From: Clostridiales bacterium
GTDB lineage: Bacteria; Bacillota; Clostridia; Lachnospirales; WRAX01
Length of the DNA stretch: 50,804 bases
Direction: 5' to 3'
Assembly (NCBI GenBank): GCA_031271375.1
Contig: JAISVU010000175.1
Location: 1-50,804, forward strand
Below the pieces are notes generated by a model, which was not told the DNA's origin, did no database searches, and was given only the letters and a program-made list of their open reading frames with translations. Below, piece by piece: positions 27,992-39,187 of the stretch; within the stretch, counting starts at the first letter, position 1; each line of letters opens with the position of its first letter. The translations under genes were made by a program, and so were the position numbers.

Positions 27992-28011
27992 GTAATGTGA
28001 TCGGATTGGCG

Positions 28012-28131
28012 CAGACGTAGGGGCGGGGTCATCCCGCCCGGCAGGAGAATAAGTGGCAAAACGGCGCAAATACGCGCCTGCAGCAGGCGGCATAACGCCG
28101 CTCCTACGGGTTGTCGGCATTGAGCGGATAA
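28012..28131. repeat. Copy 2 of the ~120-nt hairpin-rich direct repeat
   Basis: See copy 1. Copy 2 begins 142 nt after copy 1. A degenerate partial third copy is visible at about 27794-27855 (TTACGGGTTG ... TTGGACAAGCGGATAAGCAATG). Confidence 0.8.
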
Positions 28132-28142
28132 GGGGTGGCGGC

Positions 28143-29234
28143 GTGGCAGATAAAATCACAAATGAGGAATTCTCGCGGCTTCTTGAGCGGAAGGCAGAAA
28201 AAGGCGACGCAGAGTTTATATATCGTGTGGCGCAGTGTTATCACGAGGGGTATAATGTCGATAGAAACTATGATGAATCTATAAAATAGGCAAGATTATC
28301 AGCAGAAAAGGGCTACGCCCCGGGCCAGTATATATTGGGAAGGCATTATTATTTGGGGCATGGTGTTAAAACAGATTTTAACGAGGCTGTCAAGTGGTTT
28401 AAAATGTCTTCAGATCAAGGCGATTGTAACGGACAGTTTTTGCTTGCATGGTGTTATATGCACGGTCATGGAGTTTCTCAAAATGACCGCGAAGCCGAAC
28501 GTTTATATAAACTATCTTCGGATCAGGGTTATCCTATCGCACAAGCCTCTCTTGTACGGATGTATCTGAACCTAGGAGAATCATTATGTGAAGCTAACAA
28601 GTCCATTGACAATATTAACACAGCAAAAGAATACTATGAAAAAGCATTAAAAGCTGCCAAAGACTACAACAGATATAGATGGGATGTAAAAGCAAGAATC
28701 GACAAGGGATTAGCTATGACAAACACCAAACTCGAAGAATTCAAAAAAGAAGAGGCAATAGAAGCCCATATTTCACCACGCAAGGATATCTTTATCAGCT
28801 ACTCCCACGAAGATATGCTCTACAAGAACGAGCTTCTCAAACATCTGAAAATGTTCAAATACATATATAACAATACAAAGTGGTGGGATGATTCACAGAT
28901 AGAACCAGGCGCAAAATGGAAAGACGAGATAAAAGCGGCTATGGAGCGAGCCAAAATTATCATTATTATGGGCTCGGTTAGTTTTTTTGCATCTGAATTC
29001 ATACAGGACGAAGAAATTCCTAAAATCCTAGAAGCCGCCGAAGAAGATGAGGCGGTAATACTGTGGCTGCCCGTCGGCACTTGCCTTTATGAAGATACCT
29101 TTGTAGGAAAATACCAGGCGGTATCAGACCCTTCCAAGCCGCTTGAGGATATGAACCCAAGCGACCGCAACAAGGTATATACCGCCCTGCTTAATCAAAT
29201 TAAAGATATATACGGCATTTCTACCGAGGCTTAA
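28143..29234 (+). pseudogene. Sel1-repeat (SLR) + TIR-domain protein, frame interrupted by one in-frame TAG (28287-28289)
   Basis: ORFs 28053-28289 and 28335-29234 share one frame. The probable start is GTG 28143, preceded by an AAGGGGTGG RBS, because the upstream 30 codons merely translate the repeat. Three to four Sel1 repeats are present (AVKWFKMSSDQGD, AERLYKLSSDQGY). The TIR domain spans ~28779-29231 (DIFISYSHED, SVSFFASEFIQDEE). Confidence 0.8.
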
Positions 29235-32423: not shown

Positions 32424-34067
32424 TTGAAAAAGTGGAGGCTTAACGGGCGGATGCTTAAAACGGCGGTAATAGCCGGGGCCAACGCCCTTTACGAAAGAAA
32501 ATCGGAGATCGACGCGTTGAACGTCTTCCCTGTCCCGGACGGTGATACGGGAACCAATATGTACCTGACCGCTCTGTCCGCCGCGATAGACGTGGAAAAG
32601 CTCCCCAGGGAAGCGACGGTTCATGCCGTCGCGAAGGCCGCGGCTACAGGGGCTTTACGCGGGGCGCGGGGCAATTCAGGGGTTATCCTGTCGCAGCTGT
32701 TCCGCGGCTTCGCAAAGGGTTTTGAGGGCATGGAATCCGCAAGCTGCGAAAACCTGGCCTCGGCGCTGAACGCCGCGGTTGAAACGGCATACAAAGCTAT
32801 AATGAAGCCCAAAGAAGGCACGATCCTCACTGTGGCCAGGGAGACGGCGGGGAAGGTTCAAGAGCTGCATAATGAAGGCGTCGCTCCGTGCAAGCTGTTT
32901 GAGCAAAGCATCACATACGGGCAGGACATTTTGTCGAGGACAAAGGAAATGCTGCCGGCGCTCAAAGCCGCCGATGTGGTGGACGCCGGGGGTATGGGTT
33001 TTATTACGATTATTGAAGCCGCTTACGAGGCCCTTGCCGGGCGGAAGCCGGATCAGCCCGTTCTTGAGATTGCCGATCATACGGAACGTTCAGACGAGGT
33101 AAGCGGCGCCTTCAGGGCTCTTAACCGCTTCTCAACCGACACGATTGAGTTCGCTTACGACACGGAGTTTTTTATCTTTACCGATGGCGCGAGCGAACCC
33201 TTCGAAGAGGCGTTCGTAGAATACCTGGACACAATGGGCGATTCCATTGTCACCGCCGCCGAGGAGAATTACATCAAGGTTCATGTTCATACAAACAGAC
33301 CCGGCGCGGTGCTGGAAAAGGCGCTAACAATCGGAGCGCTGGACCGGGTGAAGGTCGAAAACATGCGTTTCCAGCATGAGGAAAAGACGGCGGAAGCGGC
33401 GGCGTATAAACCAACCGGTTTCATCGCGGTTGCCGGTGGCGAGGGATTCAAGGAGATATTCCGGAGCCTGGGGGCGGATTATGTCATTGAAGGCGGCCAG
33501 ACGATGAACCCCAGTTCCGAAGACTTCCTCAACGCCATCTACTGCGTCCCCGCCAAAGAGATCGTTGTTCTCCCAAATAATAAAAACGTAATACTCGCGG
33601 CACGTCAGGCAGGGGAACTATGCAAGGAAAAGACCATCTATGTCATTCCGACGCGTTCGATGCCGCAAGGCCTCACGGCGCTTATGTCCTATATACACGA
33701 TGAAGGAACCGCCGAAAACGCCGCCAATATGGAAGATGCAATAAATAATATCCATACGGCCCATATTACCACCGCGGTACGCAGCACGGTTATCGACGGC
33801 ATCAGCGTGACAAAGGGCGACGCGATAGGCATTGTGGACGGCGAAGTGACCCTTAGCCATAAAAACATGAACGAGGCGGCGCGCCGCACCGCCGAAAAAC
33901 TCATAACGGACGATACGAGCTTTGTTACCATATATTACGGCGAGGACGCGAAGCCGAAGGACGCGGACAAACTAATGGAGTATATTAAGAAGCGCTATCC
34001 CGCCTGCGAGGTTGAGGTTCAAAGCGGCGGCCAGCCCGTGTACCGCTATATCCTGTCCGCCGAATAA
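32424..34067 (+). CDS. yloV: DAK2 domain-containing protein YloV (TTG start)
   Basis: It has the DAK2 signature LNVFPVPDGDTGTNM. The C-terminal DegV-like half and the synteny with recG support the call. Confidence 0.85.
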   Translation: MKKWRLNGRMLKTAVIAGANALYERKSEIDALNVFPVPDGDTGTNMYLTALSAAIDVEKLPREATVHAVAKAAATGALRGARGNSGVILSQLFRGFAKGFEGMESASCENLASALNAAVETAYKAIMKPKEGTILTVARETAGKVQELHNEGVAPCKLFEQSITYGQDILSRTKEMLPALKAADVVDAGGMGFITIIEAAYEALAGRKPDQPVLEIADHTERSDEVSGAFRALNRFSTDTIEFAYDTEFFIFTDGASEPFEEAFVEYLDTMGDSIVTAAEENYIKVHVHTNRPGAVLEKALTIGALDRVKVENMRFQHEEKTAEAAAYKPTGFIAVAGGEGFKEIFRSLGADYVIEGGQTMNPSSEDFLNAIYCVPAKEIVVLPNNKNVILAARQAGELCKEKTIYVIPTRSMPQGLTALMSYIHDEGTAENAANMEDAINNIHTAHITTAVRSTVIDGISVTKGDAIGIVDGEVTLSHKNMNEAARRTAEKLITDDTSFVTIYYGEDAKPKDADKLMEYIKKRYPACEVEVQSGGQPVYRYILSAE

Positions 34068-36061
34068 TGTTCCGCATTGACGACCCTGTAACGGTGTTAC
34101 GAAGCGTCGGTCCCGCGAGGCTCGGTACGCTGAGACGTTTGAGCCTTTGCACCATCGGGGATTTGGTGAACCATTTCCCCAGGGACTACCGGGACAGGAG
34201 CGTAATAACGGCGATAAGGGATTTGGAACCCGGAATCCCCGCAACGGTTGTGGCGGAGGTTAAAAAATCACCGGATGTCCGCATAAAACATAAGATGACA
34301 ATAACCACGGCGGAGATATGCGACAATTCCGGAGTTATGGATATTACCTGGTATAACCAGCCCTTTATGAGAAACGCGCTGAAACCGGGGAAATACGTCT
34401 TCTCCGGCGAACCTTCGTGGTTTCACGGGCGCATGACGATGGAGCAGCCGGAATACGAGGCAGTCACAGGCAAGGAACTGCTGTCTGGGGCGCGTATCGT
34501 TCCGGTCTATCCGCTTACAGAGGGCATATCCCAGAAGATGATGCGGATGTGGCAGAAGGAAGCCCTGGACGGCCTTCCGCCCATTGAAGAAACCCTGCCA
34601 GCCGGGCTTTTGCGTGAATATAATTTAATGAATAGGGACGCGGCAATACGCAATATACATTATCCCGAAAGCCCGGCGGCCTTTAACAGCGCCAGGCGCA
34701 CGCTGGCCTTCACCGAGCTGTTCAACCTGCAAGCCGCCTTGTTCCGCGCCAGGGGCGTTGTTAAGAAACGCGAGGGGATAAGGCTTGACGATATAGATAT
34801 CAGCCCCTTCACCGAGCGCCTGGGGTTTACCTTCACGGGCGCGCAAAGCAAGGTTCTTGCCGAGATACAGGCGGACACCTGCTCGGGCTATATGATGAAC
34901 CGTTTGATCCAGGGAGACGTGGGTTCCGGCAAGACGGCGGTGGCAATGGCCGCAATGTACATGACCGTAAAAAGCGGCAGGCAGGCGGCGCTTATGGCCC
35001 CGACGGAGACGCTGGCCCGCCAGCATTACACTTACATGAAGGAGCTGTTTGAGCCGCTGGGCATATCCGTCGCGCTCCTTACAGGCTCCCTTGCCGCGAA
35101 AACGAAGAACGCGGTTAAGAAAGACCTGGCCTCGGGTATTGTCGATATAGCGGTAGGCACCCACGCCTTGATTGTGGACAACGTGTCGTTCGCCGCGCTG
35201 GGCCTTACGATATGCGACGAGCAGCACCGCTTCGGCGTGCGCCAGCGCGGGGCGCTGAACGAAAAAGGCCCTGCTCCGCATGTGCTGGTAATGACGGCGA
35301 CGCCGATCCCGCGGACTTTGGCGTTAATCCTTTACGGCGACCTGGATATATCCGTCATCGACGAGCTGCCCCCGGGCAGGACGCCGATAAAGACCAACGC
35401 GGTAACGTCGCAGTATCGCCAGCGTATATTTAACTTTATCAAAAATCAAACGGACGAAGGCCGTCAGGCCTATATCGTCTGCCCTGTGATAGAAGAGAAC
35501 GAGAGGGATTTGCAATCCGTAAAGACCTACGCCGCCGGGTTCGCCGCCGCCACGGGCCTAAGCCCGGCCATCCTGCACGGAAGGCTTAAGCAAGATGAAA
35601 AAAACGCGGTTATGGAGGGTTTCTCAAGCGGGGATATCCCCGTATTGGTGGCCACGACGGTTATTGAGGTGGGGATTAACGTCCCCAACGCTTCGATCAT
35701 GCTGATTGAGAACGCCGAACGCTTCGGCCTGGCCCAGCTGCATCAGCTCAGAGGCCGCGTAGGGCGCGGGGCCGCCCAGTCTTACTGCGTATTGGTTACG
35801 GACGCATGGAACGAGATAACGAAAAAGCGCATGAAGGCAATGACCTCCACCACCGACGGTTTCGCCTTGTCAGACCTTGACCTGAGCATCCGGGGCCCCG
35901 GCGATTTCTTCGGCACGCGCCAGCACGGCCTGCCCGAAATGCGCGTCGCCAACCTATACAAGGACGGGGATATATTGAAGGAGGCGCAAGCGGCGGCGAG
36001 GAAATATTATAGAGAAATAGAGACGGGAGACGAGAACCAAGAACTCAGATGGTTACTTTAA
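34067..36061 (+). CDS. recG: ATP-dependent DNA helicase RecG
   Basis: It has a wedge domain, Walker A GDVGSGKT, DEQHRFGV, and motif VI QLHQLRGRVGRG. Confidence 0.95.
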   Translation: MFRIDDPVTVLRSVGPARLGTLRRLSLCTIGDLVNHFPRDYRDRSVITAIRDLEPGIPATVVAEVKKSPDVRIKHKMTITTAEICDNSGVMDITWYNQPFMRNALKPGKYVFSGEPSWFHGRMTMEQPEYEAVTGKELLSGARIVPVYPLTEGISQKMMRMWQKEALDGLPPIEETLPAGLLREYNLMNRDAAIRNIHYPESPAAFNSARRTLAFTELFNLQAALFRARGVVKKREGIRLDDIDISPFTERLGFTFTGAQSKVLAEIQADTCSGYMMNRLIQGDVGSGKTAVAMAAMYMTVKSGRQAALMAPTETLARQHYTYMKELFEPLGISVALLTGSLAAKTKNAVKKDLASGIVDIAVGTHALIVDNVSFAALGLTICDEQHRFGVRQRGALNEKGPAPHVLVMTATPIPRTLALILYGDLDISVIDELPPGRTPIKTNAVTSQYRQRIFNFIKNQTDEGRQAYIVCPVIEENERDLQSVKTYAAGFAAATGLSPAILHGRLKQDEKNAVMEGFSSGDIPVLVATTVIEVGINVPNASIMLIENAERFGLAQLHQLRGRVGRGAAQSYCVLVTDAWNEITKKRMKAMTSTTDGFALSDLDLSIRGPGDFFGTRQHGLPEMRVANLYKDGDILKEAQAAARKYYREIETGDENQELRWLL

Positions 36062-36147
36062 GCAAGACACGGCTTCAGGACACGCTGATGACGATTGTAT
36101 TATGGAAAGTATATTAACGTTTTAGCAACTTTAAGGAGGTATAAACT

Positions 36148-37314
36148 ATGCAAGATGTTTTTATAACAAAGATTCATATTGATAAAGTCCGGCATTTGGA
36201 GAATCTTGATATTGATTTATCCGCTCCTGGTGAGGAGCGAAAGCATCTTATACTCACTGGGAAGAATGGCAGCGGGAAGACGAGCGTGCTCTTGTCATTG
36301 AAGAATCTCATTTTTTCAGGGCAATATTATAAAGATGTGAACTATATTACTTCACCTAATGATTCAAACCATATGTCACGTATTAAATCTTTGATGCAAG
36401 TTTATAATCAATATGTGCCAAACATCAAGGTAAATTTTTCAAATGAAACCAATGCCTTGATGGAAACTATATTTATTTATATACCTGTTAACCGTATGGA
36501 TTTGGCGACACCAACCTCTATAGAGCAAATTGATATGCAAAGCAAGGTTGAAATTGTGAATAGCTTAAGCATGGATTTTTATAAATACATGCTTAACCTT
36601 GATTATCAGCGAAGTGGTGCTTTTGTTGATAAAAACACAGAGTTATTAGGTAAGCTCAACATGTGGTTTAACCGATTTACTGAAGCGGTGCGTGAGATAT
36701 ATAACTGTAATGATCTTAATATCCGCTACTCAAGAGACAAATTACGTATTGAGTTTGATATCCCTGGGCGTGAGCGTTTTTCACTTACAGAAATGTCTGA
36801 CGGTTATAAGGCGCTGCTAAATATATATATGGAATTGCTTATGCGTTTCGGAGATAATGAGGGTAATATTGACTTTGATTTAGCTGCCGTTGTGCTTATA
36901 GATGAATTAGAAACCCACCTCCATGTCGAACTTCAAAAGCGCGCGCTTCCGTTCCTCACTAAAATGTTCCCCAACGCCCAATTCATTGTGACGACACACT
37001 CGCCATTTGTGATAACATCGTTGCCTGACGCCGTTGTATATGACTTGGAAAAAAGAGAGACCCTGGAAAATCCCAGCCTGTATTCATACGAATCCGTAGT
37101 GGAATCCTTTCTTGACACAGGTTCTTATTCCCAGGCGCTTCGCGATTACTTCAACAGATACAAGGAACTGAGCTTCAAAGAGCGGACGCCGGAGGAAAAT
37201 GAGGAATTCTTGCGGGCCAAGACCGAGCTTGAACTGATGTCCCCCGCGTCTAAGGAGCTGTATATCGCGTTCACAAACCTTGAAAAGGAACGAAAGGCTA
37301 AAAAGAATGGTTAA
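36148..37314 (+). CDS. Soluble ABC/SMC-type ATPase (AAA_15/AAA_21-like), PtuA-like
   Basis: It has Walker A GKNGSGKTS (K44), the signature-like MSDGYKALL, Walker B VVLIDELETHLH and H-loop VTTHSP. It has no TM segments. An AAGGAGG RBS lies upstream. The gene is AT-rich, with 18 G+C in the 60 nt at 36148-36207. Confidence 0.8.
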   Translation: MQDVFITKIHIDKVRHLENLDIDLSAPGEERKHLILTGKNGSGKTSVLLSLKNLIFSGQYYKDVNYITSPNDSNHMSRIKSLMQVYNQYVPNIKVNFSNETNALMETIFIYIPVNRMDLATPTSIEQIDMQSKVEIVNSLSMDFYKYMLNLDYQRSGAFVDKNTELLGKLNMWFNRFTEAVREIYNCNDLNIRYSRDKLRIEFDIPGRERFSLTEMSDGYKALLNIYMELLMRFGDNEGNIDFDLAAVVLIDELETHLHVELQKRALPFLTKMFPNAQFIVTTHSPFVITSLPDAVVYDLEKRETLENPSLYSYESVVESFLDTGSYSQALRDYFNRYKELSFKERTPEENEEFLRAKTELELMSPASKELYIAFTNLEKERKAKKNG

Positions 37315-37951
37315 ACTCACGAAAAGCCCCCTGCCGGACGGGATTGTGATAAACTCTGCGGACGTTTACAGGTCAGGGATTGCATTTGAAACATTAATCA
37401 ATGACTGCCACCAGAAATGTTACATATGCGAGGATAAGCCCACAAGCATAAATGTGGAGCATATCGTTGCACATAAAAGCGATCCGGCGCTTAAATTTGA
37501 CTGGGATAACTTATTTATCGCCTGCTGGCATTGCAACAATATTAAAAGTACAAAGTACGACGATATAATCAATCCGGTATTGATCAATCCCGAAGAATGT
37601 ATCGCTTTGTCTGTCAGGATATCCGATAATTTTATAGAAGCCGTACAGGTTATACCGTTAAAAACGGATGCCCAAGCCTTGAAAACAGCCGAACTGCTGG
37701 AGATTGTATATAACGGCGGTTCAACCGCGATGAAGAAGGTTGAAAGCGCGAATCTGCGCAACGAGCATTTACTGCCCGATATCAAGCTGTTCCTCAAATA
37801 CATAAGCGATTATATCGATGAACCGGATTTGGGATACGACAGCATTATCAGGCAAGAAATCAGCTGTTCGGCCAAGTTCGCCGCGTTTAAACGCAGAATA
37901 ATCGCCGAAGATACCGAATTGTCAGTAGCATTCGCCGATGCGTTAGCATAG
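37307..37951 (+). CDS. HNH endonuclease (TIGR02646-like), PtuB-like
   Basis: The HNH motif reads CYICEDKPTSINVEHIVAHKS...WDNLFIACWHCNNIKS. ATG 37307 overlaps the ATPase stop (ATGGTTAA). An alternative upstream ATG lies at 37280. Confidence 0.8.
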   Translation: MVKLTKSPLPDGIVINSADVYRSGIAFETLINDCHQKCYICEDKPTSINVEHIVAHKSDPALKFDWDNLFIACWHCNNIKSTKYDDIINPVLINPEECIALSVRISDNFIEAVQVIPLKTDAQALKTAELLEIVYNGGSTAMKKVESANLRNEHLLPDIKLFLKYISDYIDEPDLGYDSIIRQEISCSAKFAAFKRRIIAEDTELSVAFADALA

Positions 37952-38008
37952 AATGCAGACGCGCAATACGCGTCCCTACAGTATATGAAAGTGTGGTTGT
38001 GATGAATA

Positions 38009-39187
38009 ATGACGAAACTCATCGAATCTATAACGGCGAAGGATAAGCGCCTCGCCGTGGGCATTATGTCCGGCACGTCCTTTGACGGTGTCGATGTGGC
38101 GTTTTGCGAGATAACGGGGCATGGGCCGGGGACGAAGGTAAGGCTTCTGCATTTCGACACAAAGGCTTATTCCTCGGCGAACCGGGCGGCCCTTTTGATG
38201 AACAGCTCCGCCGAGACCAGCAATGTCGCCGATATCTGCCGATTGAACAAGCAGCTGGGCGTCCTGATCGGCGGCGCCGTGCTGGAAATAGCCGAATCCG
38301 GCGGGATATCAATGGATGATGTGGATTTTATCGCTTCCCACGGGCAGACGATGTTCCATATGCCCGATATCGGGGCGACGCTGCAAATCGGCGAGCCAGC
38401 CGACATCGCGGCGATAACGAACAAGCCCGTCGTCGCGGATTTCCGGCCTTCGGATATGGCTTACGGCGGCCAGGGCGCGCCGCTTGTGCCCTTTACGGAC
38501 TATATTCTTTACAGGGACGAGAACCTGAACCGCGTGACCTTTAACATCGGCGGCATCGGCAATGTGACGATTTTGCCTAAGGGCTGCGATATGGACGCGG
38601 TCAGGGCCTTCGACACCGGCCCCGGCAACGTCAACATAGACAATCTTATGCGGCTGCACACAAAGGGCGAGGAAAACTTTGACTATAACGGCAACATGGC
38701 GTCAACGGGCAAGCAGAACATGGAATTCTGCGAATACCTTGCGGACGCCGACCCGTTCCTTACGATAAGGCCGCCAAAGAGCACCGGAAGAGAGTTTTAC
38801 ACGATCTCATTCGCGGAAAAGCTCCTGCGCAGAGCTCAGGAGTTCGGCATACCGTTCCCCGATGTGCTGGCTTCCGTAACCAACCACACGGCCTACGCAT
38901 TATGGTACGCGTTGACATATTTCAACAATACCCCCGTAGACGAGATCCTTGTCACCGGCGGCGGGGCGCGGAACAAGTACCTGATGGGCTGTATTGAAGC
39001 CCTGTTCCCCGGCAAAGTAAAGAAGCTGGACAACTTTAAAACGTCGGACGCTAAGGAAGCCGTAGCCTTCGCTATACTGGGCAATGAGTTCCTCCACGGC
39101 GGAGCGAATAACATGCCCCTCTCCACCGGAGCCAAAAGGGCGGTAATCATGGGCAAGCTGACGCTGCCCTCGGGAGGAACGGTATGA
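38009..39187 (+). CDS. anmK: Anhydro-N-acetylmuramic acid kinase
   Basis: It has the motifs GIMSGTSFDGVDVA, SHGQT, RPSDMAYGGQGAPLVP and VTGGGARN. Confidence 0.9.
   Translation: MTKLIESITAKDKRLAVGIMSGTSFDGVDVAFCEITGHGPGTKVRLLHFDTKAYSSANRAALLMNSSAETSNVADICRLNKQLGVLIGGAVLEIAESGGISMDDVDFIASHGQTMFHMPDIGATLQIGEPADIAAITNKPVVADFRPSDMAYGGQGAPLVPFTDYILYRDENLNRVTFNIGGIGNVTILPKGCDMDAVRAFDTGPGNVNIDNLMRLHTKGEENFDYNGNMASTGKQNMEFCEYLADADPFLTIRPPKSTGREFYTISFAEKLLRRAQEFGIPFPDVLASVTNHTAYALWYALTYFNNTPVDEILVTGGGARNKYLMGCIEALFPGKVKKLDNFKTSDAKEAVAFAILGNEFLHGGANNMPLSTGAKRAVIMGKLTLPSGGTV

Follow-up and report, generated by a model that had tools for sequence, protein, structure and literature searches.

What are the two AT-rich genes that separate recG from anmK in the genome of an uncultured member of the Clostridia? 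They occupy most of positions 36062-38008 in contig JAISVU010000175.1 of a metagenome-assembled genome (MAG; Clostridiales bacterium, GenBank assembly GCA_031271375.1) whose nearest relatives are termite-gut Defluviitaleaceae; positions 1 to 50,804 of this contig were analysed as a whole and are referred to as the window. A preliminary description, made from the nucleotide letters without database searches, had proposed a soluble ABC-type ATPase and an HNH nuclease arranged as in the antiphage system Septu (PtuA/PtuB), acquired horizontally as a defence module and possibly representing a new subtype. The Septu-like module and its acquisition are borne out by the analyses below; the new subtype is not. 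Very probably, the locus is a stand-alone (type I) Septu system, composed of ptuA and ptuB, that was inserted horizontally and works in the general mode of an ATPase-gated nuclease. Judging from sequence comparison, the insertion site would have been the spacer of ~55 nt between recG and anmK in a Clostridia genome resembling those of Defluviitaleaceae.

By sequence as well as by fold, both proteins fall into the families of stand-alone PtuA and PtuB. PtuA matches the PADLOC model of the stand-alone ATPase (PDLC00268, PtuA1) with an E-value of 3.8e-85, its residues 4-364 aligning to positions 3-384 of 411, whereas the PADLOC model of PtuA from type I-A retrons reaches only 2.4e-31. In Pfam, the protein is recognised by AAA_21 (1.7e-19) and AAA_15 (9.6e-15). 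Sequence and profile searches against the PDB retrieve PtuA chains first, with those of the retrons Ec83 and Ec78 as best matches and AriA of the PARIS system far behind. Alignments and AlphaFold (AF2) models were based on 40 homologues of PtuA and 39 homologues of PtuB. The model of PtuA has a predicted local distance difference test (pLDDT) score of 87.1, and all of its top 50 Foldseek matches in the PDB are PtuA chains. Besides the profile match, PtuA shows the intact Walker A, signature, Walker B and H-loop motifs that characterise the ATPase of Septu type I (Table 1). The signature MSDGYKALL corresponds in alignment to LSDGQR, the signature region of PtuA from retrons (PMC12819146). The protein ends in three predicted helices, which would form the docking element for PtuB if the arrangement seen in solved PtuAB complexes applies here (PMC12819146).

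The second protein is firmly placed in the HNH superfamily (Pfam HNH PF01844, 26.6 bits, above cutoff) and, within it, in PtuB. The PADLOC model of stand-alone PtuB (PDLC00321, PtuB1) matches with an E-value of 9.9e-46 (residues 16-211 on positions 20-220 of 223), whereas the retron I-A PtuB model gives only 2.5e-08. In a profile search against the PDB, PtuB of retron I-A aligns over residues 22-177, well past the HNH core. The AlphaFold model (pLDDT 95.4) matches PtuB chains over their full length in all of the top 10 Foldseek results, including E. coli Septu 8eea. Thus, the structural comparison with PtuAB proposed in the preliminary description points to Septu for both partners. The catalytic His and Asn and the Cys4 zinc site, together with the profile match, provide the HNH (ββα-Me) nuclease of Septu type I, and the nucleotide-binding and HNH catalytic residues of the pair are all intact. 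In this respect the motifs named earlier for both proteins proved to be present, with their catalytic and nucleotide-binding residues invariant among the homologues; the spacing between CYICE and EH is x8 and not x9. The ~120-aa C-terminal region that had been left unassigned is, according to the model, the known β-hairpin and helical C-terminal domain of PtuB, because both the profile and the full-length fold matches to PtuB chains extend across it. In this domain, A193, F194, K195 and R196 are invariant. In solved complexes, the C-terminal extensions of the PtuA dimer hold the same domain in a clamp (PMC12819146, PMC12673091).

The public JGI gene call for this ptuB (P0121) covers only 165 aa, or 77% of the protein, and no Pfam domain is recorded for it. 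Its start lies too far downstream to include the first Cys pair and catalytic His that belong to the HNH motif. A call truncated in this way could cause an automated defence finder to miss the Septu system, which may serve as a warning for annotation.

The arrangement of the genes is that of a Septu type I operon, with ptuB directly following ptuA on the same strand, as also found at three homologous loci (L081, L082, L084). The start codon of ptuB (37307-37309) and the TAA of ptuA (37312-37314) share an overlap of 8 nt, ATGGTTAA, just as first described, and the two genes are translationally coupled. A mechanical list of open reading frames (ORFs) extended ptuB to a TTG at 37280 further upstream, resulting in 223 aa. 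The start is placed at ATG 37307 because almost all of the ~120 homologues listed have 214 aa and begin with MVKLTK. The sequence AAGGAGG is found 8 nt ahead of the ptuA ATG.

Base composition and gene order both mark the cassette as a foreign element. The 1947 nt at 36062-38008 have a G+C content of 41.2%, as compared to 53.4% in the rest of the contig, and lie below all 900 stretches of the same size elsewhere in the window (minimum 45.6%; z = -3.65). The sharp drop noted in the preliminary description, from 36 G+C at 35761-35820 to 18 at 36148-36207, was reproduced exactly. The G+C content at third codon positions (GC3) is 0.43 in ptuA and 0.53 in ptuB, versus 0.66-0.73 in six neighbouring genes. 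Relatives were sought by a RecG scan over one genome per species and an AnmK scan over metagenomes. The sole syntenic relative found is L001, a MAG of the Defluviitaleaceae recovered from a termite-gut metagenome, and its RecG is 65% identical. It has the same gene order (asp23, yloV, recG, anmK, TIGR01906, spoVB-like, sir2) at 50-69% identity, with 65-69% for the flanking proteins RecG and AnmK. In this genome recG and anmK are separated by a gap of ~55 nt and the cassette is absent. The metagenome scan with AnmK led back to this organism (L086) without yielding a closer relative. Because the cassette is missing from the same site in the syntenic relative and has a foreign composition, it is, as far as sequence comparison can tell, a horizontal insertion between recG and anmK, as had been suspected. 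Conservation of the pair at this site with a backbone-like composition, which would have spoken against horizontal acquisition, was not observed.

GC3 is uneven inside the cassette, with 0.365 in the 5' half of ptuA, 0.50 in its 3' half, and 0.53 in ptuB; the latter two values are nearer to the host. Along three homologous cassettes the G+C content (of all positions, not GC3) rises slightly at most, from 0.337 to 0.332, 0.360 to 0.362, and 0.353 to 0.389, respectively. Uneven amelioration or a recombinant origin are possible causes of the gradient in GC3. At the left border, the last 62 nt of recG (36000-36061) already have a G+C content of ~37% (counted by eye), and the alignment of RecG to the L001 homologue ends at residue 650 of 664. 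The idea that the left junction might fall within the 3' end of recG was dropped for want of support. The low-G+C tail of recG probably is native, because alignments to several RecG proteins of greater distance reach residues 658-664.

Homologous gene pairs encoding proteins of 360-392 and 214 aa, with the overlap of stop and start codon retained, occur in three unrelated genomic contexts (L081, L082, L084) in Clostridia whose flanking DNA has a G+C content of 37-40%. Moreover, at least 20 PtuA and PtuB matches lie on contigs of identical size in the two match lists. Because of these unrelated contexts and the pairing of matches across the lists, the cassette is, from the sequence data, apparently a self-contained mobile unit, and its donor most likely was a member of the Bacillota with a lower G+C content. 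The best identity anywhere in a collection of 5.8 billion proteins is 61% for PtuA and 68% for PtuB. The means of transfer left few traces. Convincing direct or inverted repeats do not flank the cassette (the best pairs have 13-27 nt at 70-88% match, typical of chance), no integrase or transposase gene adjoins it, and the window contains no tRNA gene. When four cassettes were compared, neither their upstream nor their downstream flanks could be aligned, so that conserved non-coding ends are not apparent. Searches of phage and plasmid records found no close copy, the best match being one of 35% identity on a Persicobacter plasmid. The locus may therefore be regarded as a clean case of a two-gene defence cassette in a housekeeping spacer, with no visible mobility gene or repeat.

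How closely does the cassette resemble Septu systems already described? It shares with stand-alone Septu type I the operon in which an HNH nuclease gene follows that of an ABC/AAA_15-21 ATPase, near full-length profile matches, and the lack of a reverse transcriptase and non-coding RNA. There is no difference of substance, although the cassette is a new sequence. The E. coli Septu PtuAB structures used for comparison are 8EE4, 8EE7, 8EEA, and 8SUX (Li et al., 2024, as cited in PMC12640716 and PMC12673091). Both folds are alike over their full length (8eea_G, probability 1.0, TMq 0.61; 8eea_D, probability 1.0, TMq 0.58), and the C-terminal helices of PtuA and the helical C-terminal domain of PtuB are likewise present in the clostridial proteins. 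The signature of E. coli Septu lacks the Gln of the retron proteins, as does the one reported here, but has a Leu in place of Tyr220 (PMC12819146). Identity to the E. coli pair is only 14-17%, and PtuA of E. coli is longer (465 versus 388 aa), with the shortening of the clostridial protein located between Walker A and Walker B. A pair from E. coli H240 (NZ_OL790696.1, L166 2947-4866) has the same architecture with proteins of 416 and 221 aa, which are 30% and 29% identical, and its PtuB carries the same HNH signature KCYxCE ... VEH ... WDNLF ... CxxCN. In this distant sequence from a different phylum, however, the two genes are 3 nt apart and do not overlap. The record NZ_OL790696.1 (4.8 Mb) is filed among plasmids as 'unnamed plasmid' and evidently is chromosome-sized; its PtuA/PtuB pair is unannotated.

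The suggestion of a divergent or undescribed subtype, which had been based on the compact ATPase, is unsupported, because the stand-alone models in PADLOC-DB v2 (2023) match both proteins nearly end to end and because a length of 388 aa falls within the range of 239-733 spanned by the PADLOC PtuA models. The E. coli H240 pair is a further compact example. Thus, the cassette is an ordinary further case of a system that is already well described, and not a new kind. Its import beyond annotation is small: one more Septu type I locus, found in an uncultured Clostridia MAG, that touches no open question. For biochemistry, the pair may be a candidate small Septu (388 and 214 aa), as it is abundant in metagenomes and has confident models.

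Homologous ATPases and HNH nucleases also act as effectors of type I-A retrons (Retron-Eco7/Ec78 and Retron-Eco4/Ec83; 'type II Septu'), where PtuA dimers dock PtuB in what would be the same mode (PMC12819146). The cassette could accordingly be an orphaned effector module of such a Retron-Septu that lost its reverse transcriptase and non-coding RNA, and the best sequence matches in the PDB indeed are PtuA of retrons Ec83 and Ec78 and retron PtuB. The latter result probably reflects the dominance of retron complexes among the solved structures, since the stand-alone PADLOC models are ahead by more than 50 (PtuA) and 37 (PtuB) orders of magnitude, and the NCBIfam equivalogs of the retron proteins remain far under their cutoffs (NF041760, 103.7 versus 500 bits; NF041761, 23.4 versus 150 bits). 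Retron PtuA (542-552 aa) is ~155-165 aa longer than the protein in question. Its chains have ~55 residues ahead of the first aligned position (query residue 6 corresponds to chain residue 63), and this excess matches the retron-specific N-terminal extension (PMC12819146), which the short PtuA lacks. The compact protein likely also lost the helical flap or coiled-coil element (PMC12819146, PMC12673091). Retrons of this type further possess a reverse transcriptase and multicopy single-stranded DNA. Here the neighbours are recG and anmK, the spacers of 86 and 57 nt adjoin no reverse transcriptase gene, in accordance with Septu type I, and Rfam yields no match at the gathering threshold or, locally, at E<=1, which agrees with the preliminary description. 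As all three homologous loci inspected are bare two-gene cassettes as well, a retron origin is very improbable. Even less probable is a different ATPase-nuclease defence system that merely resembles Septu, such as PARIS (AriA/AriB), Gabija, an OLD-family or AbiL-type system, or a type IV HNH restriction enzyme. The matches pointing in this direction (AriA in the PDB, E ~1e-5; the restriction-system AAA ATPase TIGR04435, 4.3e-05; PADLOC mREase_IV for the nuclease, 3.8e-05) are local, cover only P-loop or HNH cores, and are tens of orders of magnitude below the PtuA and PtuB models. For example, the AriA match is confined to residues 246-297, and the partner is an HNH protein instead of a Toprim/DUF4435 AriB. 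Pfam detects no Toprim domain in the ATPase and no partner domains of these systems in the nuclease, and PtuA and PtuB chains rank first in the fold searches without exception. The location next to recG, downstream and on the same strand, together with weak SMC_N and RecF matches over the P-loop region, might suggest a housekeeping pair of a RecF/RecN/SMC-like ATPase and a nuclease that assists recG in DNA repair. This is hardly credible for genes of foreign composition that are absent from the same site in the sole relative with identical gene order and whose homologues adjoin unrelated genes; moreover, the SMC_N and RecF matches are under cutoff.

Several points weigh against a functional stand-alone Septu system as the preferred interpretation. 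The solved PtuA and PtuB structures share only 14-21% identity with the clostridial proteins, and NF041760, NF041761, and TIGR02646 (24.5 bits for PtuB versus a cutoff of 52.15) are below cutoff, which is expected for a clade outside the retrons yet shows its distance. Between the Walker A Lys and the Walker B Asp, PtuA has ~64 fewer residues than Septu EcB88 (K44/D252 versus K43/D316, PMC13096335). Experiments on the compact clostridial PtuAB clade were not found in the literature, and the empty site is documented by a single independent genome of a fairly distant relative (65-69%). In addition, the cassette stands alone among housekeeping genes, outside any defence island, and neither an own promoter nor an own terminator is demonstrable by consensus scans: the promoter match at 36088-36115 is at chance level (6 found versus 6.0 expected from shuffles), and the terminator scan of the cassette did no better than shuffles. 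Transcription by read-through from recG is thus conceivable. The isolated position and the missing promoter would also suit a selfish addiction module akin to toxin-antitoxin systems, or a passenger that is decaying and non-functional, neither having a role in phage defence of its host, all the more as free PtuAB is toxic upon over-expression in E. coli (PMC12640716). Both reading frames are intact and of full length, however, none of the family's invariant catalytic and nucleotide-binding residues has been lost, and the translational coupling seen in the homologues has been retained as well. As tested Septu systems protect against phages (PMC13096335), a mere addiction module or passenger is improbable, if somewhat less so than the other alternatives.

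If the cassette is a working Septu system, its mode of action may be sketched from published work on PtuAB of E. coli Septu and of retrons, and each step of this sketch could equally well hold or fail in the clostridial host. PtuA would form ATP-sandwich dimers, and one PtuB would be held by its helical C-terminal domain between the three C-terminal helices of two protomers, much as solved complexes show this domain sandwiched by a pair of PtuA C-terminal extensions (PMC12819146). The dimers may then join into a higher oligomer, which in E. coli is a 6:2 complex of three PtuA dimers and two PtuB. PtuA of E. coli Septu binds ATP without hydrolysing it, ATP binding inhibits the nuclease, and the lowered ATP level during infection enhances its activity (this and the stoichiometry according to PMC12673091 and PMC12640716, both citing Li et al., 2024). 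By analogy, bound ATP would keep the HNH nuclease silent at normal ATP levels, and phage infection would free it, the proposed signals being a drop in ATP or a phage structural protein; a phage tail fibre has been reported to sensitise Septu (PMC12819146). The freed PtuB would cut nucleic acid and halt phage replication, with host growth paid as the cost. Reports on the substrates of Septu vary, with plasmids nicked or DNA degraded in vitro and tRNA cut in vivo among the examples. Septu EcB88, which protects against phage and needs its Walker A, Walker B, and HNH residues, cleaves tRNA-Tyr within its variable loop in vivo in an abortive-infection-like manner (PMC13096335). The oligomer of the compact PtuA may differ from that of E. 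coli Septu, because the interval between Walker A and Walker B is shorter by ~64 residues. One might go further and regard the compact clade (PtuA of ~360-392 aa with an invariant signature Tyr, and a 214-aa PtuB with an invariant C-terminal FAAFKR motif) as a Septu variant of distinct mechanism, differing in stoichiometry (not 6:2), trigger, or substrate, but this is rather unlikely.

The features of the locus are compiled in Table 1. The flanking genes, identified as recG and anmK already in the preliminary description, both score above their NCBIfam cutoffs.

Table 1. Positions in the window and supporting evidence for the Septu cassette, its sequence motifs and domains, and the adjoining genes and spacers.
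Feature	Position	Strand	Evidence
recG, left flank, housekeeping, outside the cassette	34067-36061	+	NCBIfam RecG NF008168, E 2.7e-244, above cutoff; syntenic in L001
Upstream spacer, 86 nt, ribosome-binding site AAGGAGG at 36133-36139	36062-36147	+	Sequence reading
ptuA (ORF1), Septu ABC/SMC-type ATPase, 388 aa	36148-37314	+	PADLOC PDLC00268; Pfam AAA_21/AAA_15; AF2 fold matches
PtuA Walker A GKNGSGKTS, residues 38-46	36259-36285	+	G38 N40 G41 G43 K44 T45 S46 invariant in 40 homologues
PtuA ABC signature MSDGYKALL, residues 216-224	36793-36819	+	D218 G219 Y220 invariant in 40 homologues
PtuA Walker B / D-loop VVLIDELETHLH, residues 248-259	36889-36924	+	D252 E253 H259 invariant in 40 homologues
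PtuA H-loop TTHSP, residues 282-286	36991-37005	+	T283 H284 S285 P286 invariant in 40 homologues
PtuA C-terminal three-helix extension, residues ~329-388, predicted PtuB-docking element	37132-37311	+	AF2 helices 329-343, 348-363, 369-386
ptuB (ORF2), Septu HNH nuclease, 214 aa, start ATG	37307-37951	+	PADLOC PDLC00321; Pfam HNH PF01844; AF2 fold matches
PtuB HNH / zinc-finger core C38-x2-C41, H52, N68, C73-x2-C76, N77, K80	37418-37546	+	All invariant in 39 homologues
PtuB helical C-terminal domain, residues ~122-214	37670-37948	+	AF2 helices 122-136, 141-171, 177-184, 192-213; full-length fold matches
Downstream spacer, 57 nt, without terminator, ahead of anmK	37952-38008	+	Sequence reading and consensus scan
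anmK, right flank, housekeeping, outside the cassette	38009-39187	+	NCBIfam AnmK NF007148, E 3.2e-120, above cutoff; adjoins recG in L001

Apart from the cassette, two more patches of low G+C content were observed in the window. One of them (44.7% in 21001-22000) coincides with an ORF of 235 aa on the reverse strand (20805-21512), whose sole match is a weak, sub-threshold similarity to an ADP-ribosyltransferase exoenzyme (PF03496, E 9.5e-4), without any match in PADLOC. The other patch (43.5% in 28001-29000) contains a gene on the forward strand (28335-29234) for a protein of 299 aa that combines Sel1 repeats (PF08238, 4.5e-17) with a C-terminal TIR domain (TIR_2, 1e-9; partial PADLOC ThsB match, 4.4e-16), and no ThsA is encoded nearby. 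An ORF of 78 aa just upstream (28053-28289) appears Sel1-like by eye, so that the true start or frame of the 299-aa gene is uncertain. This TIR gene, located ~7 kb upstream of the Septu cassette, may be a further horizontally acquired defence-like gene.

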